Positions 8,073 through 23,491 of a stretch of DNA of 64,000 nucleotides are shown here, one piece after another; the stretch's first letter is position 1; each line of letters starts with the position of its first letter. Made by a program: the position numbers and the translations under genes. The stretch comes from Acidobacteriota bacterium (GTDB lineage Bacteria > Acidobacteriota > CAIWXX01). The notes under the pieces were generated by a model that was given only the letters and a program-made list of their open reading frames with translations, had not been told where the DNA came from and made no database searches. The DNA is taken from contig JBFMAF010000024.1 in the NCBI GenBank assembly GCA_040755995.1, forward strand, positions 224,001-288,000. Direction: 5' to 3'.

Positions 8073-9059
8073 ATGCCTGCTAATCTGTCGCCCGAATACA
8101 AGGCCGCCGACGCGCGTTTCAGGCAAGCTGTGACACCCGACGAGAAGCTCGAGGCGTTGCAGGAGATGCTCGCTACCATCCCCAAGCACAAGGGCACGGA
8201 GAAGATGCAGGCGGACCTCAAGAAGCGCATCGCCCGGATGAAGCTGGAAGAGGAGCAGCGGGAGAAGCATGGCAAGCGCGGCGGGCAGTTTCGTGTGGAG
8301 AAGCAAGGGGCGGGGCAGGCCGTGCTGGTGGGCTTCCCAAACGTTGGCAAGTCGTCGCTGGTCGCGGCGATGACGAATGCGCACCCCGAGGTGGCCGACT
8401 ACCCGTTCACAACGCACCTGCCCGGTCCGGGTATCATGCCGTTCGAGAACGTGCAGCTTCAGCTGGTGGACACGCCCCCGCTGACGGAGGACATCATGGA
8501 GCCCTGGCTGCCCGATCTGGTCCGGCGCGCTGACATCGCTCTGCTGGTGGTGGACGCCGGGAGCGATGATGCACTGGAGCAGGTGGAGATGGTGCGGAAG
8601 CGATTCGCGGCGATGCACGTCGACCTCACGAGCCGCGACCCCGGCGGCACGGACAGGCAGCATCTTCATCGCCGCACCCTGCTAGTCGCGAACAAGTCGG
8701 ATGCGGCCGGCGCGGAGGATCGGTTGGAGATTCTGCGCGAGATGTGCGGCGCCGAATTCACGATCCTTACGGTCTCGGCAAAGACGGGCCACGGCCTGGA
8801 GGACTTCCGGCGAAGCGTCTGGGAATTCATGGAAAAGATCCGCGTCTACACGAAGGTGCCGGGCAAGAAAGCGGACAAGGGCCAGCCATACGTGCTGCAG
8901 CGAGGCAGCACGGTTCTGGATCTCGCGTCTTCGATTCACAAGGACTTCGTGGCCGGCCTGAAGTCCGCGCGCATCTGGGGATCGGGCAGCCACGACGGCC
9001 AGCAAGTCTCCCGCGACCACGTCCTGAGCGAGGGGGACATCGTGGAACTGCACCTCTGA
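8073..9059 (+). CDS. OBG-family DRG-like GTPase with C-terminal TGS domain
   Basis: PKHKGTEK N-terminal motif, GFPNVGKS, YPFTT, DTPP, NKSD, VSA, TGS (RVYTK..IHKDF..ARIWG..HVL.EGDIVE). Confidence 0.9.
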   Translation: MPANLSPEYKAADARFRQAVTPDEKLEALQEMLATIPKHKGTEKMQADLKKRIARMKLEEEQREKHGKRGGQFRVEKQGAGQAVLVGFPNVGKSSLVAAMTNAHPEVADYPFTTHLPGPGIMPFENVQLQLVDTPPLTEDIMEPWLPDLVRRADIALLVVDAGSDDALEQVEMVRKRFAAMHVDLTSRDPGGTDRQHLHRRTLLVANKSDAAGAEDRLEILREMCGAEFTILTVSAKTGHGLEDFRRSVWEFMEKIRVYTKVPGKKADKGQPYVLQRGSTVLDLASSIHKDFVAGLKSARIWGSGSHDGQQVSRDHVLSEGDIVELHL

Positions 9060-9100
9060 GCGGCACGCGGGCCTGAGCTCGATCCCAGGGCTCACAGCCG

Positions 9101-9919
9101 TCATTGGGAGCTCACGGCGTCACGCGATTGCACGTCTGCGATCGAATCCAGCGGAGCCTGAGCGCGAGCGACCAATAGCTCCTCCAGTCTCAGCGCGGAT
9201 GGGTATTGATCGAGATGAAGACCCTGTGCGAGGAATCGTTCGAACCCGCCGCCGGCCTTCTCGGGCTCACCGCTGCATTTTTCACTCACACTGTCCAGCA
9301 CCCACCTCAGCACCGAAACGGCCTGTTCGGGTTCCTGTGCCAGGCCCAGCTCTCCGATCATTGCGCCCAGGGCATCGAGCGCCTCGAGCTTGACCTGCCC
9401 GGGTCCCATCGCGGCGAGGAAGCTCGTGAGTCCGATCAGGAGATCCCTGAAGTCCTCCAGCACCTGTCCGAACCATCCGTGCTCTCGCCACTCCACACGG
9501 TCCACCGTCTCGAACCAGGCACGGAATGATCGAGCCGGCAGGACCAACGGTTGCACCCTGGCCTGGTCGGTGCTCATCCCCGCTGCAATGTCGGTGGCCT
9601 TGAACAGGAGACGGCTCCAGAGGTTCGCATAGAACTGCTGCATCGGCGGTCCGAAGATGCAGCGCAGGAGGAACTCCCGGTCAGGCGACATCTTGATCCC
9701 CGTGTAGATTGCCTGGACCAGCGACTCGAGGACCGCCGCGCGACTGCCAGCGTCGCGAGAGCGTTCGACGGCCTGGAGCAGGTGCTGGATCGCTTCCTGG
9801 ATCGGACGCATCTCCGCCGGAAGCTCCAGGAACCAGCTAATACCATCCCTGACGCCCTGCACGTCGCCGGCAGAGGCGGCCGTCATGAGATCCCGCGGTG
9901 TCAGCATGAGTGTCGTCAT
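9101..9919 (-). CDS. Hypothetical all-helical protein (272 aa), preceded by the shared promoter motif
   Basis: GGAGGAGG RBS before ATG 9919, amphipathic helical pattern, no domain recognised. Confidence 0.65.
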   Translation of the reverse strand: MTTLMLTPRDLMTAASAGDVQGVRDGISWFLELPAEMRPIQEAIQHLLQAVERSRDAGSRAAVLESLVQAIYTGIKMSPDREFLLRCIFGPPMQQFYANLWSRLLFKATDIAAGMSTDQARVQPLVLPARSFRAWFETVDRVEWREHGWFGQVLEDFRDLLIGLTSFLAAMGPGQVKLEALDALGAMIGELGLAQEPEQAVSVLRWVLDSVSEKCSGEPEKAGGGFERFLAQGLHLDQYPSALRLEELLVARAQAPLDSIADVQSRDAVSSQ

Positions 9920-9978
9920 CGCAAGTCCTCCTCCAGAGGGCGAACCCGTTCGACCTGAGGGCGCCCTCATAATAGGTA

Positions 9979-10005
9979 GATTTGGCGAACAGGCCACATC
10001 TTGCG
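9979..10005 (-). promoter_or_regulatory. Putative ECF promoter motif, copy 1
   Basis: Plus strand gatttggcgaacaggccacatcttgcg; 60 nt upstream of ATG 9919; A-tract upstream on minus strand. Confidence 0.7.
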
Positions 10006-10215
10006 TCCTCTGGCGAAAATTTTTTTCAGGCACCGGGCTCTGATCCGAGGGGTCCGTCACTCACCAGGCGGGAGGCGCTGGACACTGACACACGGAGACG
10101 CGGAGAGGAGGACCGGCTTCGCCTTCGCCTTGCCGCCACTTGAATTCCGGCCGCCCGCCTGCTAAGAATAATGCACGTCCCGGGTTCGTTTCGCTGGCGC
10201 CGATAACTGGGGGGG

Positions 10216-13200
10216 ATGATCGCGATGGAGGAGGGCTGCTCTCGCTCTGCACCCCCACACCGCCGGGCGAGGGCTCGGGTGCCTACCCAGGTGTGCTGTG
10301 GATCGGCCTTGTTGGCTGTGCTCGGTTCGCAGTCCGCCGATCTCTCGTCTCGGGCGCCCCGCGCCATTCATGTTGGAGAGACGCTTGAGGCGGAGATCGC
10401 GGACCCAGAACACGCCCGCCTCCGGCCTTCTTTGGGCCCAGGGCACCGGTTCATTTTCGACGGCAGGGCAGGGCAGAGGCTGACCATCGGCGTGGAGTCA
10501 TTCGAGTTCGATTCGTATCTGATTCTTTTCGACCCGGCAGGCCGCGAGATCGCATTCAGCGATGACAGCGCCGGTTTCTCCAACGCGTGCATTCGGAGGC
10601 AGCTCCCCGCGGACGGCGAGTATCTGCTTGTCGTCTGCGGCGCGACCGCTGATCACCTCGGGACGTACTGGCTCACGGTACGAGAACGCGATCACGAGCC
10701 GGATTACAGTGAGCGGGCAGCGACTGCGTACTACCGTCGAGGACTGGCATGGGCATCAAGCCGCGGGAGCCGGCGCGCCGAGAGCTTCCTCAATCTGGTC
10801 ATGGGCAGGTACTATCGCGAGCGCGGGCGCTGGGGGCAGGCGGAGGACTGCTATGCCCGGAGTCGCGCCGCGGCCCAGACAGCCGATCTTGAGGTCGCGT
10901 TGTGCGCGGCCGCAATCGAACGCGGCAGGCTGATGACTCAGCGCATGCGCTATGACGCGGCCATCCGGGAGTTGCTGCGCGCACTAAGGCTGAGCGCCTC
11001 GCTGCGCGCGGCTGAAGACGCGCAGGCACAGGCCTACGCGCAGATAGGTGACATTTATCGGTCCATCGGTCGCTCCCCCGTTGCTTCCGTCTGGTACCGC
11101 AAAGCCGCAGAAGCGACATCTCCCGACGGCCCGGCTTCGACCCGAGCCAGGGTTTATTCGTCCCTGTTCAAGTCATCACTTACATCCGACAGGGACGAAG
11201 CATTCGGGTATGCGAAGTCGTGCCTTGCGATGCGAGATGCAGTTGATCCCGTGCAGCGTGTCACGATCACCGCCGATTGGGCGCGTGTGGAAGGCGCGAG
11301 GGGGCAGCCAGAGGAAGCCCTCAGATTGGCCGAAGAGGTGTGTCGCGCAGCGCGTTCGCTCGGCTGCCGGGACATCGAGATCTCCGCGCTCTCACTTGAG
11401 AGCCTGATCGCTTGGTCTCTGCGCGACATGGATGGGACCATCAAGGCCGCCCGATCCGCCGCCGCCCTAGCTCGGCCGGAAGACGAAGATTCCGGGTCCC
11501 TTCGCGTCGCGCTCCAGATGCAAGCGAGCGGCGAGATGCTCCGGGGCGACTACCAGGCGGCCCTTGCGTCGTGCCTTAAGGCGCTCCCACTAGTGGAGCG
11601 AGGCTGGGAACGTGAGCCCGTTCCTGAAGTGCGGCAGGGCTATGCGTCGCAGACGAGGGGGCTTTGCACCCAAATCATAAGATGTCTGGCCGCTCTGAAT
11701 GCACAGGAGCCGAAGACGGGACATGCTCGCATGGCCTTTGATTTCGCTGAGCGCACCAGATGCCGGTCGTTGCTCGAGGAATTGCACCGTGACGAGTTCG
11801 AGCGTCAGGGGATGCGCGCAGCGCTCGAAGCTGAACAGACGCCACTGATGGTGCGCCTGTCCGCCCTCAGCCGTCAGCTCGCAGTCGCTCGTAGTGACGA
11901 TATGAGCGATCAGGGATTGCTGGACCGGCTGGAGGAAGATCGCGCGAGGCTCGTGGCGCAGCGTATGCTTTTGGAGGCGAGATGGAATGGGCACAGTACT
12001 TGCGAGAGGGCGAATTTGCCGGTCCCGCTGACCTGTGACCAGCTACAGTCAGGCTTCCTGCGGCAGCGGCCCAATACCGCCATCCTCGTCTACCAGCTGG
12101 GCGTCAAAGAGAGCTTCCTTTTCCTTCTCAGCCGGAGCGACGTGCGCCTCCTCACTCTGCCGGACTGGAACTGCATCGGTGGGCTCGTCAGGCAATGGCG
12201 TTCCGCCATCGTCCAACAGCTTCGCTCAGATGCCGGTGACGTGCTTCAGGTGCGCCACTACGAGGATATCGCTCACAAGCTCTATGCGACATTGGTGCAG
12301 CCGGTGGCGGACCACATACGAGGAAGAGATCTGGTTTTCGTCGCCGATGGAGTCCTGCACGAATTGGCGTTCGAGAGTCTCGTCACGTCCAGAGCTGATG
12401 ATGCGAGCAGCTATGCCGGCCTTCGTTATCTGGTTGAGGACCACGCGATCACCTATGCTCCGTCCGTCACGATTCTGGTCGAGGCCGAGCGCAGGGCAAA
12501 CGTGCGGCCTCCACCCGCCAGGAATCTGCTGCTGGTGGGCGACGCGGTGTTCACACCGGATGATCCCCGCGCCGGTGTTCCCCCGTCTACGCCGTCCGTG
12601 AGCTCCAACACGGGAGCAGGCAGAAGGGCGATGGCACTTCGTGCCGGCATCGGGAGGCTGCCGGCAACACGTCAAGAGGTCCTGGGCATCTCGGAGCTGG
12701 CCGAGAAGAGCAGTTGGCATTCGACACTCTGGATGGGATTCGACGCGGCGGAAGGAAGGCTCAAGACCACGCGGCTGTCGCAATTCCGCATCGTGCACTT
12801 CGCGACTCATGCAACCGCAGACCCAGTGGACGGCGAGTTCTCGGGCATCCTCCTTTCGTATGATCGCGACTCCTCGGACGAGGACGGGCTCCTTTCCGCT
12901 GCTGAGGTGAGAAGCCTGGATCTCGATGCCGAACTTGTCGTGCTCAGCGGCTGTTCCACGGCCGCGGGCCAGCGGACAGGCGCTGAGGGAGTAATTGGGC
13001 TGAGTCGCGAGTTCATGATCGCCGGGGCTGAGCGCGTGTGCGCATCGCTTTGGGATGTCGAAGACGGGTCCACACAGCGGCTAATGGGCACCCTATATGG
13101 ACACCTCCTCTCCAGAGGCGACCCCCCGGGTTTCGCGTTGCGGCAGGTGAAGATCGAACTCCTGTCCGCTGGTCTCTCACCCAGTCGCTGGGCCGCCTTC

Positions 13201-13221
13201 GTCTTGGCGGGAGCGCTGTAG
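10216..13221 (+). CDS. PPC-domain/TPR/CHAT caspase-like protease
   Basis: PPC-like domain (FDGRAGQRLTI..FDSYLILFDP.G..IAFSDD), TPR-like helices, AFDFAERTRCRSL, CHAT motifs DGVLHELAF, HFATHA (His), VLSGCST (Cys), SLWDV, WAAF. Confidence 0.93.
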   Translation: MIAMEEGCSRSAPPHRRARARVPTQVCCGSALLAVLGSQSADLSSRAPRAIHVGETLEAEIADPEHARLRPSLGPGHRFIFDGRAGQRLTIGVESFEFDSYLILFDPAGREIAFSDDSAGFSNACIRRQLPADGEYLLVVCGATADHLGTYWLTVRERDHEPDYSERAATAYYRRGLAWASSRGSRRAESFLNLVMGRYYRERGRWGQAEDCYARSRAAAQTADLEVALCAAAIERGRLMTQRMRYDAAIRELLRALRLSASLRAAEDAQAQAYAQIGDIYRSIGRSPVASVWYRKAAEATSPDGPASTRARVYSSLFKSSLTSDRDEAFGYAKSCLAMRDAVDPVQRVTITADWARVEGARGQPEEALRLAEEVCRAARSLGCRDIEISALSLESLIAWSLRDMDGTIKAARSAAALARPEDEDSGSLRVALQMQASGEMLRGDYQAALASCLKALPLVERGWEREPVPEVRQGYASQTRGLCTQIIRCLAALNAQEPKTGHARMAFDFAERTRCRSLLEELHRDEFERQGMRAALEAEQTPLMVRLSALSRQLAVARSDDMSDQGLLDRLEEDRARLVAQRMLLEARWNGHSTCERANLPVPLTCDQLQSGFLRQRPNTAILVYQLGVKESFLFLLSRSDVRLLTLPDWNCIGGLVRQWRSAIVQQLRSDAGDVLQVRHYEDIAHKLYATLVQPVADHIRGRDLVFVADGVLHELAFESLVTSRADDASSYAGLRYLVEDHAITYAPSVTILVEAERRANVRPPPARNLLLVGDAVFTPDDPRAGVPPSTPSVSSNTGAGRRAMALRAGIGRLPATRQEVLGISELAEKSSWHSTLWMGFDAAEGRLKTTRLSQFRIVHFATHATADPVDGEFSGILLSYDRDSSDEDGLLSAAEVRSLDLDAELVVLSGCSTAAGQRTGAEGVIGLSREFMIAGAERVCASLWDVEDGSTQRLMGTLYGHLLSRGDPPGFALRQVKIELLSAGLSPSRWAAFVLAGAL

Positions 13222-13277
13222 ACGCCTGCGGCGACACAGCCTCCACTCGATGCCGTCTCGGTTGATCACCGGTCGCG

Positions 13278-13466
13278 TCAGGGCTTGCTGGGACTACAGC
13301 AGTCCGCCCCGAACAGACAACAATCGTCGTCCAGCGTCATGGGTGGGTTGATTGTGCGCACTCCCGCTTGGTTGTGCTGCAAGGGGCTTGGTGACGGCGT
13401 CCACGCTGGCGAAGCCAGCAGAAGTGTACCCAGCAGTCCCAGAATGATCCATCGTACTACCGACAT
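13278..13466 (-). CDS. Small secreted cysteine-rich peptide (62 aa)
   Basis: AAGGAGGA RBS before ATG 13466; signal peptide MSVVRWIILGLLGTLLLASPA; C-terminus DDDCCLFGADCCSPSKP; shared promoter motif upstream. Confidence 0.75.
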   Translation of the reverse strand: MSVVRWIILGLLGTLLLASPAWTPSPSPLQHNQAGVRTINPPMTLDDDCCLFGADCCSPSKP

Positions 13467-13579
13467 GGTTTCCTCCTTGTTGAATGAATGCCGTTGACCG
13501 ATCGCCTCGGCCGGCGGCGGTTGTGTTGTTTGACCGTGTTCCACCTGTAACCGTTGTTCATGTCCCTTCACCAAAGGAT

Positions 13580-13606
13580 GATTTGGCGAGAAGGGCACAT
13601 CTTGCG
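13580..13606 (-). promoter_or_regulatory. Putative ECF promoter motif, copy 2
   Basis: Plus strand gatttggcgagaagggcacatcttgcg, 24/27 identical to copy 1; A-tract upstream on minus strand. Confidence 0.72.
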
Positions 13607-13663
13607 TGCGGAGCATAGTTTTTTTTCCAAGGCGTCGCGCGGGTGCTGGCGACCTCACAACGT

Positions 13664-13813
13664 CTGCCGCTGAAGGGCACTCTCCGAGTGCTGCTCGATG
13701 GCAAGGAAGCAGACCTGATCGAGGAAGTGAAGCCGCTTCGGGACCGCCTCCACGAGCTCCGATCCCGCATCGCGCCGCACAGTCGCACCACCGTCCTGGA
13801 TCTGGCCGGCGAG
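13664..13813 (+). pseudogene. Remnant of DUF3368-type PIN-domain gene (C-terminal fragment)
   Basis: GTLRVLLDGKEADLIEEVKPLRDRL..SRIAP..VLDLAGE resembles the DUF3368 C-terminal pattern GTLGVLL.AK..GLI..VKP.LD.L..AGE; N-terminal part absent. Confidence 0.6.
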
Positions 13814-13934
13814 CCTGTAGCCGGGTCAGTGCGGGCCGCTTCGCGACCACCACACCAGCGGGCCGCCGTCCGCTGTTTCGGGGTTACGGCTGCGGACGAG
13901 GATGATGGATGGACTTGCTCCGGGCCGATCTCGC

Positions 13935-13962
13935 TGATATCATAATGGAGAGTATGATATCA
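13935..13962. promoter_or_regulatory. Perfect inverted repeat, probable TA operator
   Basis: TGATATCATA-N8-TATGATATCA, 23 nt before the antitoxin ATG. Confidence 0.75.
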
Positions 13963-13985
13963 AGGACACGGGGGAGGCAACTGGG

Positions 13986-14225
13986 ATGCGCACGATCATC
14001 ACTCTCGCGCCGGAAGACAAGGCGTGGCTCGACCGGGTGGCACGACAGCGTCACGTCCCGATGACTCGGATCGTCGCCCAGGCAGTCAAGGAGCTTCGAC
14101 GTGAATGGAGCTTTCTCGATCAGGATTTCGACCAGATACTTGACGAGACACGCGGCATCTGGAAACGAGCTGGCGGATTGACCTACCAGCGAATGCGCCG
14201 GGCCGAATGGGACAGGCGACAATGA
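13986..14225 (+). CDS. Ribbon-helix-helix (CopG-like) antitoxin, VapB-type
   Basis: MRTIITLAPEDKAWLDRVARQRHVPMTRIVAQAV; ATGA overlap with PIN toxin. Confidence 0.85.
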   Translation: MRTIITLAPEDKAWLDRVARQRHVPMTRIVAQAVKELRREWSFLDQDFDQILDETRGIWKRAGGLTYQRMRRAEWDRRQ

Positions 14226-14590
14226 GGCTGCTGCTCGATTCAGTGATCGTCATCGACCACTTCAACGGAGTCTCGAATGCTACAGCGTACCTCGCTGCCG
14301 TGCGAACGGAGGCTGCCGTGTCGGTGATAACTCGAGCGGAGGTCCTGGCGGGGCTCGATGACCTCGCTGCAGTCAAGGCCCAGCGTCTCCTCGACTGCTT
14401 CCCCACGCTGCCCATCGACAGAGAGGCGGCAGACCTCGCTGCGAGTCTCCGGCGCAGCCACCACTGGAGGCTCCCCGACGCATTTCAGGCTGCGCTCGCG
14501 CTCAGACACGGGCTCCTCCTCGTGACCCGGAACACGAAGGACTTCCCGCCTTCCAAGCACCGCTTCGTCCTCGTGCCGTATCGACTGTAG
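14222..14590 (+). CDS. vapC: PIN-domain toxin, VapC family
   Basis: LLDSVIVID, SVITRAEVL.G, LPDAFQAA.A, LVTRNTKDF. Confidence 0.92.
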   Translation: MRLLLDSVIVIDHFNGVSNATAYLAAVRTEAAVSVITRAEVLAGLDDLAAVKAQRLLDCFPTLPIDREAADLAASLRRSHHWRLPDAFQAALALRHGLLLVTRNTKDFPPSKHRFVLVPYRL

Positions 14591-17500
14591 GTGTCCGGAG
14601 GATGCCCGCTCCGATCCAGCGAGCAGGAGCGTGGTCGCGCACGCAGCGGGTACCGCAGACGGGGCACGGAGGTGTGGACGCGGTCGTCGGCTGCCTGGAC
14701 CCGCCATGCACGTCCTCGCAGTTGTGCGACATCTCATTCTCGCCCCGGGCGCCGGTCACGACTCTGACTATGCTGAAGGTCGCGTCGCTTTCGTCCCACG
14801 GATCCTTGTCCAGGTCGCTCACTCGTGTGAGACAGTTCGTAGATGTCGGAGTCACGACCGGCCACTGGCAACTTCCCGTGTTGACGATTCCCGCCTTGAT
14901 CCGGCTCCAACTCTGCCCGTTGTTCCGAGAAATGTCAACGTTCACATTCCGCACGTTGCCGCCGGTCGTCCAGGCGATCGTTGCCGTCGTTCCCACCTTG
15001 AGCTGCTCGCCTCCGTTCGGCGATGTCACCGTGATGCTCGGCCGGATCGAGAACGGCTCCTTCGTCTCGCCGCAGAACTTCATGTTCGCAGCATCGCTCA
15101 CCCGCAGATAGCACTCCGCGGCCTCCGGCTCCGTCACGATCCAACTCAGGCTTCCCTCGTTCGTGTAGGTCGTGTTCTTCGGGTCGATGTGCTTCCAGTC
15201 GCCGCCATCCCGCTTGATCTGTATCTTCACGTTCTTCGGCGTCCCGGACGGGCTCCACTTGATCGTGTAGCTCTTCCCGTTCCTCAGCACATCGCCGCCC
15301 ACCGGCTTCTTGATCGTGAAGCCGTCGTTGATCGGGAACTTCGCATCGGAGGTGTCGGCTGTGACACCGCCGGCGTCTTTGATCTCGATCAGGCATTCGG
15401 TCGACGCTGGGCCCGTGACCGGCCATGGCAGCTCGCCGCTATTGGGCACCGATTCGCGCCCCGGATGCAACGACTCCGAGTAAGGCGCCTTCCCGGTGCG
15501 GCTCAGCGAGACCTTCACGTTCTGAATCCGAGTCATGTCGCCGGGGTTCCACTTGATGGTCTGCTTCGTCCCGATCGTTAGCCCGTCGTTCTTCCCATTC
15601 GGCCATTCCACCTTGATCACCATCTGCTGCGGCACGATCGAGAATGGCTTGCTCATGGCCGACGGATCGGCGTCCCCTGGATCTTGGATACGGACGCGCC
15701 AGCCGTCCCCAGAAAGGCCCTCGGGCACCGGCGGCACCTCGCACAGATAGTGCCCGCTGTTCTCGCAGGATGGCACGACTTCGATCGTCTCCAGATCGTG
15801 GTCGGGCAGGTTCTTGATGAGGTCGATCCTCACGTGTTGGCACAGCGACACGCTCGTGGCCACCCACTCGATCCTGTACTTGTTGCCGACACCAAGCAGC
15901 TCTCCTCCTTCGGGTCTGGTCACTCTCAGAGTCGCTGGCGCGGCCACGATGCGGAAGTGCTCGTCGCTCTCGTCCTTCACGCCAGCCGTGATCTCCTCCA
16001 CGCGGATCCGGTACGCGTTGCCCGGCGCGTCGTCAACAATCCACCGGCAGGAAGTCACATAGCCCTTCTCTGCAATGGGCCGCACGCGCTCCGGGCTGCT
16101 AGAGTCGTCCACAAGAGAGATCCTCAGTCCCTTGCCGCTCGCGAAGTGTCCGGTCAGCTCCCAGCTGATCATCACCTCGGTGCCCGCCTGAAATGTCTGC
16201 CGTTCCAGCTCGGTGTTGTGTGGGGGCACCCTGCCGCCGTTGGGATAGAGGACCTTGATGGCTCGATTCGACGGCTCGATCGTGAACGTGCCATCGCTCA
16301 GATCCTGTGTGTCTTCATTCCCGGTGTGAATCCGTATCAGGCACTGCTCGGATGGCGCGTTCGGCACGCTCCACTTGAACGACTTGCTCTTCGGATCGAG
16401 CGCGTTGGCTCCGTCCACCGCCTTCCAGTTGGTCCCGTTGTCTGTGGAGTACTTGATCGCCATCGTCTGCGTGCCGAAGTCACCATCGGCGATCCACACG
16501 ATGTTGTGCTCGGTGAGCGCTTCCCAGTGCTCACCGCCGTTCGGCTCACGCACGGTGAGCTTCTTCTGGACGATCGAGAACGGCGCATCGCTCGTGTCTT
16601 CCTCGGGCCCGGCCGTGTTGCTGATGCGGATGTAGCATCTCCCGGCGGCGGTGTCGGCAGTCCACTTGCACTGGCGTGCGGCCGCGTCGAAGGATGACTT
16701 GATGACCTTGATCTGAGTCGCGTTGCCCACCGAGATGAGCAGCTCGATACGCACCGTGGCGATGTTCGACGTGGCTCGCCACTTGATGGTGGTGGACTTC
16801 CCCACGATAAGCGCTTCGCCTCCGTTGGGGTACTCCACCACGATCTCGCCGGTCACAACGGTGCCCTGCGGAGACCTGTCCGTCTTGAGACGCATCCCGC
16901 GATCGTCGTAGAGGTAGCTCGCAAGGAGCGGCAGCTCTGCCGTGCCCGCGTCCGGTGTCGTGTCGCCGTCCATCTCGGCCAGCAAGCTCGACATGTCGCT
17001 GCCCGCCTCCGCATTCATCTTCCGCACCTCCGCGAGGCGGTTCTGATTGTCCCAGACATACTGGTAGACGCCGTCGGACTTGAGATTGCCGCGGCCGTCA
17101 TAGGGCAGGCCGATGATCTGGTTCTTCCCGTTGAAGGTCTGCACCAAGGGCGAGCTCGTGCCCTCGGTGATCTGCCGGGCATTTCCCAGTCCGTCATACT
17201 GGTAGGCGATCGACGGCACTCGGCCGGCGCTGTTCGGAGTGTACTCCACCTTGGTCAGCCGGTTCAGGTCGTCGTACTCGAAGGTCGCGTCGAGCTGGGG
17301 ATTGGTGTCGGTGATCGACGTGATGTTGTAGTTGCCGTCATAGCCGTATACAGCGCGATAGAGGTTCTTCGTGGAATTTGCGAGCCGGGCACTGCCCAGG
17401 TGACCTGTCTTGAGGTAGGCGGCGGTGAACGTGGTCCCGTTGGCGAACCCGATGCTGGTCGGCTGCTTGTAGTCCGCATAAAGCGCAGAGTCGACGATGC

Positions 17501-19298
17501 GCGCGCCGTTGCGCCTCACGCTGTCCGGGGCGTCGAAGCCGGTATTCGTGTACGTGATCCTCTGGCCATCCGGGTAGACGACTGCGCTGAGGTTGTTGCT
17601 GGCATCATGCTCGTACGCCAGCGTCTTTGCAGACATTCCCGGGATAGTGAGCGTCTCATGCTCGACAGACCCCAGCGGATTGTACGAGATGCCGGTCCGC
17701 TTCCACCCCTTCGTCGCGCTCTCGACCGAGCGGAGCGTCCCGTCGCCCGGGTCGTAGCCATAGTTCAGGTCATCGTCCCCGGAATTCAGGGTCTTGAGCT
17801 GGTTGAAAGTGTTGTAGCCGTAGTTGATTGCGGTGGTCGCCCAGACCTTCCGTTCGAGGTTGCCCGTGGTGGGGCTGTACGTGTAGCTGATCGTCCCGGT
17901 TTCCGGGTGGCTCTCGCTGGTGACATTGTCCATGCCGTCGTGGGAGTACCTCTGGGTCCGGCCGCCGCTGAGGTCGGCCCGCAGAAGCCGCCCGATGTCG
18001 TCATAGTAGTACGCCGTGGAGACGCCATTCGGTTCGGTGGTGAGCGTGATGCGGCCGGGCAGGCCGTCGTACCGGTATTTCCAATGCTTGCCGTTCGCGT
18101 CTGTCACATCCTTGAGGCCGTTCTCGAGACTCACGATCGTGGTCTTGTTCCGGGGGTCCGTGGTCTGCACAACGTCGCCGGCTTGATTGTAGATATAGCT
18201 GTAGACGTCCAGCGGGTCGGTGCTGCCCCTGGATTCCGCAACCACCCGGCCCTCCTTGTCCAGCTCCTTCCTGTACTGGAGCGTGGTGCCGGTCTTGAGG
18301 TCTTTCTCCGTGTGCCCAAGGGCGCGCCCGAGACCATCCCAGTACTTGACGATCTGCTTCTGCTCCTGAGTGACGGTTGCGCTTCTGCCGTTCTCGGCCC
18401 ATCGCACCGTGATGTTGGCGAACTGCCCGGGCATAGTGACGTCGGTCACGCGGCCCAGGTTGTCGTAGGAGAAGCCCATCGTCCCGCCGTGCTGATTGGT
18501 TTCCGTCAGAATCGAGCTGTCGTGCGGGCTGATGGTTCTACTGAATACGGTGAACCCATCCTGCCATTTCAGAAGCGACTGCACTCCGTGGTCGTACTTC
18601 GCGATCTGTTTGCCGGCGGAGCCCGGGAGGTCCGTCGTGATCGTGATCAGTGCCGGATTCGCCAGCTGGTTCTCGTAGCCCCAGGTAAGCCAGTTCCCTG
18701 ACCCCACCCACCGCTCGACCTGCGTGACGGCGCCCGTTGGGAAGTCGTACGTCGACTTCGTCTCCTTGAGCTTCCCCGACGATCCGGTCGTCGTCTGGTT
18801 ACTGACGTATGAGAGCATGTAGCTGTCTTTGAACCTCTGGTCGCTCTCGAATGCGTAGCTGTATGTGTCTGTGTAGCTGGCCGCGTGGGGGCCCGTGCCG
18901 CTCGAGTGCGTGATCGATGTGGGGAGCCCGCGCTCGTACGGCCCGGTGCGGTCGTAATAGTATGCGTCGATCGTGGTCTGAGCCGGAAGCGTTGTGCGCT
19001 TCACGCTCCTTCTGAGAGGAACCCATATGGGCGCACACTCGTTGAGATGATTGATATCGCCGATCACGTACCTCTGCCAGCCGTACCACTCATGATAGCT
19101 CGTGTCCCCGTACCACTTCTCCGTGATCACAGGGTCCAGCGTGACGTCGCCGGGCAGACCGTATTTGGCGTAGGCCTTCTGTGTGGCCGGTCCGGTCACA
19201 ACTACCGTGTCATCTCCTGCCAGGTTGAATCCTGGATACTCGTAGCTCCATTCCGCGGTCTCGCCCTCGCCATCGACGATGGCCCTCCGCCATACCAC
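14502..19298 (-). CDS. YD/RHS-repeat protein with seven C-terminal PNGGE Ig-like repeats; apparently lacks N-terminus and RHS core end (frame open to 19697)
   Basis: Many YD-type repeats (YDNLGRV, YDDIGRL, YDDLNRL, YDGRGNL, YDDRGMR) then 7 ~95-aa units starting P(N)GGE-like and ending SD..F(S/T)I-like; GTG 19298 after GGGGA is a tentative start. Confidence 0.85.
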   Translation of the reverse strand: MVWRRAIVDGEGETAEWSYEYPGFNLAGDDTVVVTGPATQKAYAKYGLPGDVTLDPVITEKWYGDTSYHEWYGWQRYVIGDINHLNECAPIWVPLRRSVKRTTLPAQTTIDAYYYDRTGPYERGLPTSITHSSGTGPHAASYTDTYSYAFESDQRFKDSYMLSYVSNQTTTGSSGKLKETKSTYDFPTGAVTQVERWVGSGNWLTWGYENQLANPALITITTDLPGSAGKQIAKYDHGVQSLLKWQDGFTVFSRTISPHDSSILTETNQHGGTMGFSYDNLGRVTDVTMPGQFANITVRWAENGRSATVTQEQKQIVKYWDGLGRALGHTEKDLKTGTTLQYRKELDKEGRVVAESRGSTDPLDVYSYIYNQAGDVVQTTDPRNKTTIVSLENGLKDVTDANGKHWKYRYDGLPGRITLTTEPNGVSTAYYYDDIGRLLRADLSGGRTQRYSHDGMDNVTSESHPETGTISYTYSPTTGNLERKVWATTAINYGYNTFNQLKTLNSGDDDLNYGYDPGDGTLRSVESATKGWKRTGISYNPLGSVEHETLTIPGMSAKTLAYEHDASNNLSAVVYPDGQRITYTNTGFDAPDSVRRNGARIVDSALYADYKQPTSIGFANGTTFTAAYLKTGHLGSARLANSTKNLYRAVYGYDGNYNITSITDTNPQLDATFEYDDLNRLTKVEYTPNSAGRVPSIAYQYDGLGNARQITEGTSSPLVQTFNGKNQIIGLPYDGRGNLKSDGVYQYVWDNQNRLAEVRKMNAEAGSDMSSLLAEMDGDTTPDAGTAELPLLASYLYDDRGMRLKTDRSPQGTVVTGEIVVEYPNGGEALIVGKSTTIKWRATSNIATVRIELLISVGNATQIKVIKSSFDAAARQCKWTADTAAGRCYIRISNTAGPEEDTSDAPFSIVQKKLTVREPNGGEHWEALTEHNIVWIADGDFGTQTMAIKYSTDNGTNWKAVDGANALDPKSKSFKWSVPNAPSEQCLIRIHTGNEDTQDLSDGTFTIEPSNRAIKVLYPNGGRVPPHNTELERQTFQAGTEVMISWELTGHFASGKGLRISLVDDSSSPERVRPIAEKGYVTSCRWIVDDAPGNAYRIRVEEITAGVKDESDEHFRIVAAPATLRVTRPEGGELLGVGNKYRIEWVATSVSLCQHVRIDLIKNLPDHDLETIEVVPSCENSGHYLCEVPPVPEGLSGDGWRVRIQDPGDADPSAMSKPFSIVPQQMVIKVEWPNGKNDGLTIGTKQTIKWNPGDMTRIQNVKVSLSRTGKAPYSESLHPGRESVPNSGELPWPVTGPASTECLIEIKDAGGVTADTSDAKFPINDGFTIKKPVGGDVLRNGKSYTIKWSPSGTPKNVKIQIKRDGGDWKHIDPKNTTYTNEGSLSWIVTEPEAAECYLRVSDAANMKFCGETKEPFSIRPSITVTSPNGGEQLKVGTTATIAWTTGGNVRNVNVDISRNNGQSWSRIKAGIVNTGSCQWPVVTPTSTNCLTRVSDLDKDPWDESDATFSIVRVVTGARGENEMSHNCEDVHGGSRQPTTASTPPCPVCGTRCVRDHAPARWIGAGILRTPTVDTARGRSGAWKAGSPSCSGSRGGARV

Positions 19299-20215
19299 GC
19301 GCGATCCCCATGGTCCGCTCTTACCACCGCGGTGAGCTCCGCGCGCTCGGGGCTCATCGCCACAATCGACAACAAGCACGCGACGCCGTCGAAATGCTCC
19401 TCCGGGTGGAACCTGAACGAAAGCCTCCCAGGCGCCGACTGTCTCACCGAATACGGCCCGGCCGTGGCTCCGGGCTCCGCGCTTGCGATGGCCAGCACAC
19501 GGTCGTCGTAGATCACATCGAACGACCCATACGACGGCCACACGCGCGCAGCGACGATCACACGCACGGAGAACTCCTCGCCTGCGGCCGTCTGGATCTT
19601 GCGCGGATCGAAGGCAACCGCCGCTCGCGCTGGAAGAACGTTTTGTACACTCGGCGCCGCGGTCGTCGGGACTGAAGGGGCCGGTGGGCTCGCACATCTC
19701 CGCTCCTCTGCGAGCACCGCTCCAGCACGCCCTCCGGCCGGCGCACCACCGCCAGCGACGGCCTCGAGTGGCTCCTCCATCGCTCGCAAGCGGATGGCGG
19801 CAATCTGGCGCTTCAAGAGGCCATGATCGTTGAAGGGATCCGTGCGGACGGCTTGCGCATACGCCTGGTATGCAGCCGCAAGCTGCTCCGAGCGCTCCAG
19901 CTCTTCGCCGCGCGCAATCAGAGCCTCCGCTCGCTGGGCGATGGCGGAAGCCAGAGCGGCCGAGTACTTCGGATCGCCTGGATCATGCTTCAGAGCTTCC
20001 TGCAGATACCCGATTGCATCCTCGTGCTGTTCAGCACGTTGCGCTCGCATCCCACTGTTGTAAGCACGCGACGCCGCGCACCCCGCGCTCGCGAGGAGCG
20101 CGAGTATCGTCAGCATGCACAAGCGGATACGGCGTCTTCTGGCAGATCCACCCGTGCCGCTGGGCCTCGCCGCGGACCTTTCGGCTCTCCCTACCCCTTC
20201 TGTCACCTCAGTCAC
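19202..20215 (-). CDS. Lipoprotein with TPR N-terminus and cohesin-like C-terminal domain
   Basis: Lipobox ILALLASAGC, TPR-like helices (AIGYLQEALKHDP; AYAQAVRTDP), Pro/Ala linker, cohesin-like strands (GEEFSVRV..FDVIYDDRVL); GTG 20215 after GAGGGG. Confidence 0.7.
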   Translation of the reverse strand: MTEVTEGVGRAERSAARPSGTGGSARRRRIRLCMLTILALLASAGCAASRAYNSGMRAQRAEQHEDAIGYLQEALKHDPGDPKYSAALASAIAQRAEALIARGEELERSEQLAAAYQAYAQAVRTDPFNDHGLLKRQIAAIRLRAMEEPLEAVAGGGAPAGGRAGAVLAEERRCASPPAPSVPTTAAPSVQNVLPARAAVAFDPRKIQTAAGEEFSVRVIVAARVWPSYGSFDVIYDDRVLAIASAEPGATAGPYSVRQSAPGRLSFRFHPEEHFDGVACLLSIVAMSPERAELTAVVRADHGDRAWYGGGPSSMARARPRNGATSIQDSTWQEMTR

Positions 20216-20233
20216 ATGTCCCCTCATATATAT

Positions 20234-20260
20234 AGTTTCGCGAGAAGGCCAATTCTCGCC
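20234..20260 (-). promoter_or_regulatory. Putative ECF promoter motif, copy 3 (degenerate)
   Basis: Plus strand agtttcgcgagaaggccaattctcgcc, 19/27 identical to copy 2; just upstream of the lipoprotein/RHS unit. Confidence 0.5.
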
Positions 20261-20854
20261 GGAGAAACAAAAAGAACTTTCCTGAGCAGAATCTGCAGCC
20301 GAAATTTGGCCCAGGGAATGGGCGCGCTTGTGGGAGGAAACGCCGGACTGTGCACTACCACTTGGCGCTAAGTTATGCATGACTATCATCTCCATCGCAC
20401 ACGATACAATATAGTACTTGTGGAGACCTTTGTCAAATGCGATAAAGGCGCCCCGCGCAAGTTAGCACCATAGGGCGTATCGGCCTTTCGCTCCGCTGGT
20501 CGTGGGGGCTAATTCATAAATTAGGTTGCCAGCGGGCAACGACAACCATATACAACACTGTAGGTTCATTGTGGCTACCAATCATTCGGACGCTAGCCAT
20601 CTTCTCCTCCTGCAGGAATACGCGCAAAATACTACAACGCAGTCCGAGAACCTGTGACACGAATCACACGGGAAGGCGTCTGCGACCCACATTCATGGCC
20701 CTCGCGACGGCCCCCGATGATGGGGTTTCGCATCCGCGGTAGGGCGGCTCCCCGTGTCGACCCAGCGCAGATACTCCGGAGTCTACTCCTGATGCCGCGT
20801 GAGAAGATCGCTGAGGTACTGGTGCGAGTTCGCTGAATTCGGCAAGCAGTGCCT

Positions 20855-21649
20855 TCAGCTCGTCGATCGTTCGATTATCGCCTTCAGTCTCTCCGCCTGC
20901 CTCCGTAGCTCGCCGTTCGAATCGATGATCTTGCGGAGCTCGTCGAGTGCAGCATCGGGCTTGTTCGCGCCCAGGTATGCCAACGCCAGATAGTATCGAG
21001 CGCGTTCGAGAGACATTCCGGCGCTCGTTTCTGCGGCACGCTTCAACGGCCCAATTGCATCCGCGGCCTGACCCATGAGCACAAGAGAGACGCCCTGGTA
21101 GAAGTGCGCCTCAGCGTTCTCCGGGTCCAGCCTGGCTGTCACCTCCAGCTGTTTCGACGCGGACGCGTAGTCTTGTTTCAGGTACGAGGCCATGCCTTCA
21201 TCGAATGCCTCCCAGCCGCCGGCACCACGAAGCACTGGGCGGCTTGCTGGAGGTACATAGGCCGCCTTGGGCACGACCATCCCGGTCCAGAGCCTGGTCT
21301 CAGATCCTGATCCGCGGCCTGACAAGACGAAGTATGCTGTCACCGCCCCGCCGGCGACCAACAGAACGGAGGCTGCCAGTAGCGCCGCCCGCCCGCGCCA
21401 GGCCCATGCTGGCGGCATCCTTTGCGGCAGATCGACGGCTGGAATCTGCTCTGCCCGCGCTGCGCCGCGTAGCACGGCCTGGCGATGATTTCGCAGGGTC
21501 GCCATATGGGGGGCCATCGCGAACACCTCTTCGTGACAGTACGCGCATTCCCACATGTGATCGACGAAGGCCTCGCGCTCACCCTCGTCCAGCATGCCCA
21601 GCTCATAGCGGGTTATCAGCCGACCGACTGCAGGGTCAGTACATTTCAT
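20855..21649 (-). CDS. Zinc-finger (ZAS) anti-sigma factor with TM helix and extracytoplasmic TPR domain
   Basis: HxxxCxxC (HMWECAYC), TM segment ALLAASVLLVAGGAVTAYFVL, TPRs (AHFYQGVSL; ARYYLALAYL); downstream of ECF sigma. Confidence 0.88.
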   Translation of the reverse strand: MKCTDPAVGRLITRYELGMLDEGEREAFVDHMWECAYCHEEVFAMAPHMATLRNHRQAVLRGAARAEQIPAVDLPQRMPPAWAWRGRAALLAASVLLVAGGAVTAYFVLSGRGSGSETRLWTGMVVPKAAYVPPASRPVLRGAGGWEAFDEGMASYLKQDYASASKQLEVTARLDPENAEAHFYQGVSLVLMGQAADAIGPLKRAAETSAGMSLERARYYLALAYLGANKPDAALDELRKIIDSNGELRRQAERLKAIIERSTS

Positions 21650-21726
21650 AGGTCACTCCCTTCCTCTGGATCGAGAACCGCGATCTGTGCTGAAACGGCC
21701 TCTGCTCGGTCCCGGCACTATCGTCA

Positions 21727-22281
21727 TCATTGCGGCCTCCCAGAGAGTATCTCCCGCAGCGCCTTGCGGCACCGAAGCAGCCATTCGTCAACGCGGGCTC
21801 TCGGGGCCCCCAGACTCTCAGCCAGCTCCCGCACGCTCACCCCCTCGCATATTGCGAGAAGCAGCGCCCGGCACCGAGGCCTGCTCTCGCCCAGAAGCTC
21901 GATGGCGCGCCGGACTGCGGGGTACATCAGCGCGGCCTCGATCTGGGGCTCCTGCGACCTGCCCCGGTCAACGGACTCTGGATCGCCAGAATGCAGCTCC
22001 ACCTGTCGCCTCTTCCTTTGCCTCTCATAGTAGTAGTAATTGCCTATGATGTTTCGGAGCACAGCATCGGTATACTCCAGCAGCCCTTGGCGTGTCTGGA
22101 TTTCCGAGAAGTGCTCCTGGACCACCATCAATGTGTCATGTACGACGTCCTCTAAATCTCCCTCACTTACTTTAGATTTGGCGAGAAAGCGGTATCTTGC
22201 GCGCAAATACAAAAAAAGTTTCTCCCGGGCCTCCGGGTCGCCCGCCCGCGCCAGGTAGAAAAGGTCGGCGATCCTACCCAT
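21727..22281 (-). CDS. ECF RNA polymerase sigma-70 family factor
   Basis: ARAGDPEAREKLF, LEDVVHDTL, region 2 (VLRNIIGNYY), region 4 (CRALL..EGVSVRELAESLG..VDEWLLRCRKALR). Confidence 0.9.
   Translation of the reverse strand: MGRIADLFYLARAGDPEAREKLFLYLRARYRFLAKSKVSEGDLEDVVHDTLMVVQEHFSEIQTRQGLLEYTDAVLRNIIGNYYYYERQRKRRQVELHSGDPESVDRGRSQEPQIEAALMYPAVRRAIELLGESRPRCRALLLAICEGVSVRELAESLGAPRARVDEWLLRCRKALREILSGRPQ
22175..22201 (-). promoter_or_regulatory. Putative ECF promoter motif, copy 4, internal to the sigma CDS
   Basis: Plus strand gatttggcgagaaagcggtatcttgcg, 22/27 identical to copy 2 with all mismatches in the spacer; T7 tract upstream on minus strand. Confidence 0.68.
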
Positions 22282-22612
22282 CGCAAGTCTGCTCTGTGGT
22301 CATCGCGTCTGATCTACCCTCCAGCAGGCCGGGGACCAGCGACTCCAACGGCGCTCCCGGGAGGCCGCAGCGGCGGCGGCGGACGCTCTCCTGTTCACAG
22401 CATTCCTCGGGGCATGGACAACGGCCGTATTCTAGCACCACTCGCGTGCCCCTGGTCGAACGAGCCTCGCCTCCTGGTCATCCTCGCTCCGGGCTGTTGG
22501 GGCCTGCTGCGGCGCATTGACAAGTGCGGCACATCTCTGGGAATCTAGGGACTGCAGGCGCGACTGGAGGTGTCGTTTGGAATCTGCGAGGTCGGGGCCC
22601 ACGCCGGAGGAC

Positions 22613-23491
22613 ATGCAGGCCGTCTCCGCGCGCCGTGAGCTGCGCCTTGCCCTCGCCTTCATGGTCCTCATCTGGGGAGCCGGCTACACCGTCGTCAAGG
22701 TCACGCTCCTGGAAATCGCACCCGCTAACATCGCCGCTGCGCGGGTATTGATCGCAACGCTCAGTCTGTTCCTGGTGCTCCGCGCGTCGGGCCGCAACGC
22801 CCGACTCGATATCCGCGCGGTCCCTATGATGGTGCTTCTCGGCTTCACGGGTGTCGCAGCAAACCAGCTTCTGTTCGTCGTCGGGCTGAACCTCACGGTC
22901 CCCTCTCATTCCTCGCTCGTCATCGCCACCGGTCCGGTCTGGGTGCTCCTGCTGGCGGTGGTGTTCCTGGACGAGCGGATCGGGCCGCAGAAGATCGCCG
23001 GCATCGTCCTGTCGTTCGCAGGGGTCGCCGCGCTCACCGTCCACTCCGACTTCAGCTTCGACCCGCATTATCTCGCAGGCGATCTCATCACCATGAGCGG
23101 CTCGTTCTCATTCGCGATCTTCACCGTCATCGGCAGGAAGACTGTACAGCGCTACGGAGTCCTGAAGTCCACGGCGTACTCGCATCTCTGCGGTGCACTG
23201 CTGCTTCTGCCCTTCGCCCTCATCATCCGGACTCCGAACCCGCGCCCCCTCACGGGTGTGGGCCTCTTCGGAGTGCTCTACCTCGCCATCCTCTCCTCCA
23301 CCGTCGCCTACCTCATCTTCAACCGCGGGCTGCGCGACCTTGGAGCCAGCAGCGTCGCGATCCTTAACTACTTCCAACCGCTCCTCGCGATCCTGATCTC
23401 GATCGCACTCGGCCAGGAGCCTCTCACGGCTCAGGTTTTCGCCGGCGGCGCCATGATCCTGGCCGGGATCTTTCTGGCGGAACGAGCCTGA
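22613..23491 (+). CDS. DMT/EamA family transporter
   Basis: Two EamA repeats, ~10 TM helices, IWG..; GGAGG RBS before ATG 22613. Confidence 0.92.
   Translation: MQAVSARRELRLALAFMVLIWGAGYTVVKVTLLEIAPANIAAARVLIATLSLFLVLRASGRNARLDIRAVPMMVLLGFTGVAANQLLFVVGLNLTVPSHSSLVIATGPVWVLLLAVVFLDERIGPQKIAGIVLSFAGVAALTVHSDFSFDPHYLAGDLITMSGSFSFAIFTVIGRKTVQRYGVLKSTAYSHLCGALLLLPFALIIRTPNPRPLTGVGLFGVLYLAILSSTVAYLIFNRGLRDLGASSVAILNYFQPLLAILISIALGQEPLTAQVFAGGAMILAGIFLAERA

Follow-up and report, generated by a model that had tools for sequence, protein, structure and literature searches.

The ECF sigma factor gene of the window (the whole stretch of 64,000 nt that was analysed; Table 1) contains, inside its own coding sequence, a promoter-like element that is real and non-random and represents a case of conserved dual coding. 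Comparative evidence makes it likely that this element is a promoter recognised by the very sigma factor encoded there, which would transcribe the downstream anti-sigma gene from within a sigma gene driven by a housekeeping-type promoter, establishing negative feedback. The initial annotation had proposed that the sigma gene carries an internal copy of the likely target promoter of its product, pointing at the anti-sigma gene; comparison with other loci supports this proposal, the copy being both conserved and dual-coded, and the case for the element is stronger than was stated then.

Table 1. Coordinates of the features discussed, as positions in the window.
Feature	Positions	Strand	Evidence or remarks
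ECF sigma factor gene, 184 aa (P0001)	21727..22281	-	TIGR02937, Pfam Sigma70_ECF, RpoE profile alignment
Extended -10-like site TGCTAGAAT, candidate for a housekeeping promoter driving the sigma gene	22429..22437	-	Pattern match, 0.06 expected
A/T tract 5' of the -35 box, UP-element-like, codons E19-L26	22204..22222	-	Common to other copies
Putative -35 box CGCAAGA(T), codons R27-A28-R29-Y30	22194..22201	-	Invariant in 10 other type-A copies
Putative -10 box CAAATC, codons A34-K35-S36	22175..22180	-	Invariant in 10 other type-A copies
Discriminator and predicted start near 22167	22155..22174	-	Inferred from usual ECF spacing
Predicted anti-sigma gene (P0002), 264 aa: N-terminal C/H/C/C zinc-type domain, hydrophobic stretch, TPR domain	20855..21649	-	
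Type-B copy heading TPR gene and RHS gene	20235..20260	-	Matches the internal copy of the paralogous sigma gene
Type-A copy upstream of the Cys-rich peptide gene	13580..13606	-	
62-aa Cys-rich peptide gene, hydrophobic leader, likely target	13278..13466	-	Shine-Dalgarno-like run before ATG
TPR-CHAT (caspase-like) protein gene of the module	10216..13221	+	Pfam CHAT 202.9 bits, TPR_12
Second type-A copy, before a 272-aa gene (9101-9919) without known family	9979..10005	-	

P0001 scored 57.1 bits against TIGR02937 (cut-off 42.9) and matched the Pfam family over residues 2–166, and the family profile matched E. coli RpoE end to end over positions 8–173; with an alignment that begins at position 8, the reading frame is truly coding across the element. 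The protein contains only sigma2 and sigma4 and falls in the size class of around 200 aa, as corresponds to an ECF (group IV) sigma factor, and it reached none of the NCBIfam subfamily cut-offs. Upstream of the gene we did not find a two-box sigma70 match, the extended -10-like match standing alone; a scan of 21 other family loci showed the same pattern, TGnTAnnnT, ahead of the sigma gene in 14, and it precedes both sigma genes of this family in the genome of the window (G000), i.e., the one described here and its paralogue on contig C36. Matrix and pattern scans revealed no copy of the type-A or type-B motifs described below upstream of either of these two genes. Applying the Lys56/-11 rule reported in PMC7776599 to P0001 was uninformative, the aligned residue being hydrophobic.

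The internal 27-mer (22,201–22,175, minus strand) occupies nt 81–107 of the sigma CDS, spanning codons R27–S36. It is identical at 22 of 27 positions to the copy upstream of the peptide gene (13,606–13,580, minus strand) and at 21 of 27 to the copy at 10,005–9,979 (minus strand), with both boxes exact; recomputing therefore returned the 22/27 identity, the perfect boxes and, as nt 81–107, the approximate location (80–107 nt into the CDS) first given for it. The pattern CGCAAGAT-N9-TCGCCAAATC has six exact matches in the 7.7-Mb genome, and 12 with up to two mismatches. In total, G000 contains 11 clear copies of this motif, designated type A, and the 10 copies other than the internal one stand before genes. 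A 72-column matrix built from these 10 copies, spanning the upstream A/T tract, the boxes and the downstream purine run, gave 58.0 bits for the internal copy, within the range of leave-one-out scores of the 10 others (41.8–68.6), and 19.6 bits for the best non-member in a scan of the genome. The likeness extends beyond the boxes: none of 199,991 random genome windows reached the score of the flanks of the internal copy alone, the upstream flank by itself was equalled by a fraction of 2.5e-5 of random windows, and the downstream flank resembles those of other type-A copies.

The possibility that the element is a chance product of protein constraint was rejected, since none of 200,000 synonymous recodings with a fixed peptide reached 58.0 bits using the codon usage of the genome, nor did any of 200,000 under uniform codon choice. 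Codon adaptation along the sigma gene is minimal over the element (0.35–0.42 vs. 0.54–0.84 in the other 14 windows of the gene), where the early remark had noted atypical codons consistent with dual coding. A crude control over 46 sigma genes from G000, counting gapped-word copies, ranked the gene from the window first, with eight other copies, and the C36 paralogue tied second (four copies) with two unrelated genes. A contig from a relative that spans the sigma gene differs at 59 letters over 21,886–22,283.

G000 contains one paralogous pair, on contig C36 (sigma gene G000:C36:197662, with a product 39% identical to P0001; the anti-sigma factors are 40% identical). At the same codons, the paralogous sigma gene shows a different motif, designated type B, with six other copies, two of which form a divergent pair beside the CHAT and peptide genes of the paralogue's own module; another lies at position 20,260 of the window. 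All 11 type-A and seven type-B copies consist of two boxes at a fixed spacing (7-mer, 14 nt, 5-mer) and face genes. Matrix A dropped from its score on the window gene to 4.1 bits on the C36 paralogue, whereas matrix B scored the paralogue at 74.5 bits and the window gene at 30.9, a value with which some cross-talk may occur. A TPR gene and a gene for a 1,731-aa RHS-repeat protein (20,260–14,502, minus strand) separate the anti-sigma gene from the peptide gene, and one contig from run X1 joins position 20,858 to 13,607, a weak hint that this block could be an insertion; likewise, the type-B site heading it hints that the two paralogous systems might be cross-wired here. A near-consensus sigma70-type site (20,436–20,408, minus strand; 11/12) lies between the anti-sigma gene and this type-B site, and two short ORFs at around 13,900–14,222 (minus strand) and just upstream, which by eye could be an antitoxin and PIN-domain toxin pair, lie in the interval that separates the RHS gene from the peptide promoter. 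Elsewhere in the genome, a type-B and a type-A site (G000:C33:60697 and 60595, minus strand) are arranged in tandem, 102 nt apart, before a single gene for a secreted Cys-rich protein, which we read as a putative target of both paralogues.

The anti-sigma gene starts 78 nt after the sigma gene, and a gene for a C/H/C/C domain protein follows the sigma gene in all 14 core loci aligned; residues C3, H31, C35, and C38 are invariant in these 14 sequences, and P0002 also shows TPR matches. A model of the P0001–P0002 complex scored 0.84 vs. 0.35 for the best control, passing a mark that was reached by 116 of 157 solved pairs and by 2 of 215 mismatched pairs, with a contact agreement between runs of at least 93% and a partner pLDDT of at least 87. 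The model supports binding of the sigma factor by the zinc domain of P0002, with Arg29 and Leu33 among the predicted contacts, and this pass may in part reflect likeness to solved zinc anti-sigma complexes. We found no terminator-like site between the internal element and the anti-sigma gene, whose ribosome site is good (-7.2 kcal/mol); these features, together with its orientation, suggest that the element is aimed at the anti-sigma gene.

Besides the peptide gene, the putative type-A targets include another two ECF-like genes and a number of genes for signalling. Downstream ORFs were examined for nine of the 10 other type-A copies, and the copy at C33:68074 has an ATG just downstream. Three of the type-A copies are overlapped by upstream extensions of ORFs for which a start downstream of the motif is likelier, as judged from a Shine-Dalgarno-like run or from likeness to paralogues. 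The two ECF-like sigma genes (preceded by the sites at G000:C3:107555 and C56:36772, minus strand) are related to each other and each is followed by a large gene, one of them peptidase-like, which could form part of a sigma cascade. The 62-aa peptide contains two Cys-Cys pairs near its end and matched no Pfam or NCBIfam family; similar peptide genes follow the CHAT gene, in convergent orientation, in homologous modules, and a TPR-CHAT-type gene adjoins the sigma/anti-sigma pair in the homologous loci.

A word-index search with P0001 alone retrieved only itself (1 of 416 candidates), while alignment extended the family to 11 proteins and a profile to 21 representatives (E ≤ 1e-30). The related loci are from Acidobacteriota; nine genomes from a 401-genome sample of the phylum had a match, three of which were G000–G002, and this sample contained no further core members. 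The family layout comprises the sigma, anti-sigma and TPR-CHAT genes; beyond the CHAT gene lie a gene for a Cys-rich peptide and a pair of divergent promoters. Using a matrix derived from 16 intergenic sites of G000, we scanned 33 sigma loci, in 11 of which the aligned codons gave a match of 8 bits or more: the window, L001, L065, L067, L069, L070, L074, L075, L081, L087, and L088. The matches in L075 and L081 scored 15.3 and 10.3 bits, and their genomes lack a clear regulon. Within the core family, nine of 14 loci contain the internal copy and five have none. In G001:C287, an identical 23-mer is found inside the sigma gene and at the site after the CHAT gene. A tree, weakly supported along its backbone, suggests an old internal copy that underwent two or more losses.

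Inspection of synonymous positions across the sigma homologues, a check proposed with the initial annotation, was favourable to the element, with rare codons maintained at box positions. In 13 core genes taken without grouping (L070 was left out as a near-copy of L074), Arg29 is encoded by AGA in eight and by AGA or AGG in 12, compared to 20 AGA among 278 other Arg codons; likewise, Lys35 is AAA in nine of nine, vs. 31 of 87 elsewhere. The residue R29 itself is at least 90% conserved. The GC3 over the element is 0.42 in carriers vs. 0.67 elsewhere in their genes, and 0.67 vs. 0.68 in non-carriers, groups that are defined by the motif and hence partly circular; the low GC3 in carriers and not in non-carriers argues against a plain codon effect of the 5' end. 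These data also bear on whether the element might be a relic, that is, an unused master copy from which the target promoters were duplicated or gene-converted, with no present role. The near-identity of internal and local intergenic copies, spacers included, would fit with this, as would the copy retained in L087, whose -35 box no longer fits the likely targets of its clade. Conversely, the rare codons are kept at box positions across genes that are just 30–45% alike, the likeness ends at the boundaries of the element, the copy decayed in the clade where the -35 box changed (see below), and ECF sigma factors would still read a consensus site; we consequently regard a relic as quite improbable.

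The internal boxes vary in concert with the sigma factor. Among six modules, nine module-proximal sites match the internal boxes of their own sigma gene at 105 of 117 bases, which ranked first among the 720 permutations of labels, with the qualification that nine of 14 candidate sites were in register and kept, the five modules with no copy were left out and kin are not independent. The -35 box CAAGA is found with a sigma-4.2 helix containing DEW or DEH (the window, L065, and L070/L074), GCGAGA with DDR(V/L)Y (L001, L067), GAGAGA with TNK (L069), and TGAAACC with KV(R/Q)(V/T)FR, while L088, with a DDRVF helix and a GCAAGA box, goes against this co-variation. As far as these sequences tell, the -35 box tracks the recognition helix of sigma-4, L088 being the exception; from the same co-variation we infer that the internal promoter is cognate. 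The -10 box adopts a SAAAC form family-wide. In the four loci with the KV(R/Q)(V/T)FR helix (L066, L068, L071, L072) the sites after the CHAT gene read TG(A/T)AACC-N14-(S/A)AAAC, with TGAAACC in the same register as the putative -35 box of the window. TGAAAC is the -35 element of described ECF groups (PMC7826278 supplement), and the occurrence of a known ECF -35 in the targets of the sister clade marks the motif of the family as an ECF promoter. That helix residues set the -35 element is, as reported in PMC7776599, established for ECF sigma factors.

This evidence makes it the least probable of the readings considered that the copies are operators for a dimeric regulator, or an RNA element, instead of sigma promoters. 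Types A–C do show a partial symmetry, type B holding a 7-bp inverted repeat, and the spacers are more alike than promoters would require, as with the identical 23-mer from G001. Nevertheless, the symmetry is gone in many copies that preserve both boxes and the 14-nt spacing, the copies face genes, the sister clade has a classical ECF -35, and spacer sequence is described as affecting ECF selectivity (PMC5758882); moreover, five copies displayed no common RNA fold (z from -1.76 to 0.21) and there was no Rfam match in positions 9,000–23,000.

The clade using TGAAACC (L066, L068, L071, L072) is devoid of the internal copy and, in its four loci, has instead a TGnTAnnnT site 25–37 nt before the first Cys codon of the anti-sigma gene (0.07–0.11 expected in each), which is absent before the anti-sigma gene in the window and in six other loci with a strong copy. 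On present sequences, this loss and replacement amounts to one event in one clade. Several observations count against the preferred reading of a self-recognised promoter supplying anti-sigma: in L087 and L088 the internal copy coexists with an intergenic -10, L073 has target-like sites but lacks the internal copy as well as a site ahead of the anti-sigma gene, and the intergenic twins in genomes other than G000 and G001 are few in number and were chosen by hand. Enrichment of a generic pattern was weak, with 6, 3, 5, 12, and 5 matches in genomes G061–G065 vs. 0, 2, 3, 6, and 4 in controls, and two matches vs. one in G002. In a more distant clade (L077, L079, L080, and L083, from genomes G066–G069) Arg29 is replaced by Ile and the aligned DNA reads GAAATA-N14-(S/T)AAAC; three genomes have comparable sites ahead of an orthologous gene (L190, L195, L196). 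A strict pattern for the GAAATA clade had few matches, and a looser one had 6, 8, 3, 4, and 3 vs. 0–2 in controls (2, 0, 1, 0, and 1), many of them inside long ORFs, so that these intergenic sites are only suggestive of a regulon.

In the circuit that we favour, codons 19–42 (region 2.1) would contain a promoter for polymerase carrying this ECF sigma factor, and the sigma gene would be transcribed from the housekeeping-type promoter with no self-activation. The membrane anti-sigma factor would hold the sigma factor until arrival of a signal, probably relayed via the TPR-CHAT protein, with signal-dependent release postulated by analogy with DdvA/DdvS (PMC11506125). Free sigma factor would then fire around ten target promoters and the internal one, whose transcript, starting near 22,167, would lack the sigma start codon and carry the anti-sigma gene after a leader of ~518 nt; anti-sigma would rise with no more sigma being made, and the response would shut down. 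The internal element thus probably makes extra anti-sigma to switch the response off. A leader of this length would be odd if supplying anti-sigma were its sole purpose, since leaders from known internal promoters are of 62–228 nt, and polymerase bound at this point, 115 nt into the gene, may additionally impede transcription from upstream.

Indeed, the main job of a cognate internal promoter could be self-repression, if holoenzyme sitting or firing 80–115 nt into the gene blocked or dislodged polymerase initiated upstream and lowered the amount of full-length sigma mRNA. The far-5' position, fixed in all carriers and some 270 nt from the upstream -10-like site, agrees with this, as does conservation of the copy in a distant clade where the sigma and anti-sigma genes abut; however, the separate -10-like site before the anti-sigma gene in the clade with no copy points to anti-sigma supply, and we deem self-repression as the main role unlikely, the two effects being in any case compatible and not exclusive. 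The internal transcript might also yield a sigma factor truncated to start at around residue 40 or 53, lacking region 2.1, that would serve as a decoy for the anti-sigma factor or block promoters. L065, L069, L070, L074, and L088 have an in-frame ATG or GTG exactly at the predicted start, most carriers have a Met or other start codon 36–42 nt further on, and in the window a three-codon ORF (~22,139–22,126, minus strand), preceded by a purine run, has a stop that overlaps the Met53 codon and could allow stop-start coupling. Conversely, in the window gene there is no start at +1 and no ribosome site for Met53 (+0.4 vs. -7.2 kcal/mol for the anti-sigma gene), L067 has no start before +84, genes devoid of the motif possess the same Met and purine run, and an ATG at +1, also found in intergenic copies, may be part of the promoter consensus. 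The early suggestion of an N-truncated sigma factor consequently found no support for the window gene, where we found no convincing in-frame start preceded by a ribosome site, and such a product appears very improbable.

If the internal element is a self-recognised promoter, the specificity of the sigma factor and its own coding sequence might be locked together: the -35 box would have to be writable around the codon for Arg29, which is nearly invariant and is placed against the anti-sigma factor in the complex model, and this would constrain the promoters that can evolve. We put this forward tentatively, as a possibility that is rather doubtful at present. Each change in the recognition helix would have been accompanied by rewriting of codons 27–36. 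Judging by the register, TGAAACC would be unwritable at these codons unless Arg29 is replaced, and so a shift to it would have led to the death of the internal promoter and to a housekeeping promoter taking over the anti-sigma gene; the distant clade would have given up Arg29 for Ile, reading GAAATA inside the gene and at some intergenic sites. If true, the gene would spell out its own regulon in a place invisible to pipelines that search only upstream. The main ECF surveys search only upstream of the gene or operon, as described for windows of 200 bp (PMC7826278 supplement) and of 150 and 300 bp (PMC7776599), and families such as this one would therefore be scored as non-autoregulated. The family would also provide a naturally occurring set of sigma/promoter pairs in which the boxes are non-canonical (-35 ending in AGA, -10 SAAA(C/T)) and the pairing could be read from a single gene; such pairs could help in deciphering the ECF recognition code and serve as orthogonal switches. 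It would be a clear example of a single sequence simultaneously under selection as protein and as promoter, and would fix the likely regulon of an unstudied split module of sigma, anti-sigma, CHAT protease, and peptide.

The feedback logic itself is not new. The initial annotation had contrasted it with the positive autoregulation usual among ECF operons; the contrast holds, but was overstated, because sigH-rshA and rseA P3 are precedents. In Corynebacterium glutamicum sigH-rshA, the sigma gene is reported to be transcribed from housekeeping promoters only, and a self-read promoter inside it, shown by Northern blot and primer extension and proposed as a fast shut-down, drives only the anti-sigma gene (PMC3489674). 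Its starts lie 62–66 nt before rshA, at the 3' end of the gene, and it is described there as a difference from related actinobacteria (PMC3489674), whereas here the predicted start is in region 2.1, ~518 nt upstream, and the element is conserved in the family and varies with the specificity of the paralogue. Similarly, E. coli rseA P3 is described as a SigmaE-dependent promoter inside rpoE that drives rseA-rseB-rseC with a 228-nt leader (PMC8595263), although rpoE also has an upstream sigmaE promoter, closing a positive loop of which we found no counterpart, and its boxes, position and anti-sigma type are all different. A possible RpoE6-dependent promoter for the anti-sigma gene is likewise reported inside the rpoE6 ORF of Sinorhizobium meliloti rpoE6-ecfR6, an operon of the ECF26 group that is, however, also autoregulated (PMC6180224). 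In addition, a model of the sigmaE network indicates that ordinary operon autoregulation can already give negative feedback (PMC12633294). The closest likeness in components is to DdvS/DdvA from Myxococcus xanthus, with an ECF sigma factor and a membrane anti-sigma factor with a CHCC zinc domain, TPR and CHAT (PMC6061681, PMC11506125). However, in DdvA these domains are fused in a single protein, and ddvS-ddvA is preceded by a self-promoter, GTAA-n16-CGT (PMC6061681, PMC11506125), while here the TPR-CHAT protein is encoded by a separate gene, the 264-aa anti-sigma factor has no CHAT domain, the promoter motif is different, a Cys-rich peptide is a target and the self-promoter is internal; by analogy, the module of the window works like a split form of DdvS/DdvA and is not a member of that group. 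Among the matches listed in the supplement of an ECF classification, CHAT was tied only to ECF54 of Actinobacteria (PMC7826278). The literature covered, largely outside subscription journals, held no account of this sigma family, nor of a self-promoter that keeps a fixed place in the codons of region 2.1 and changes along with specificity. In comparison with these systems, the circuit itself is known, and what is new is its fixed position in region 2.1, the family-wide dual coding and the co-variation with specificity.
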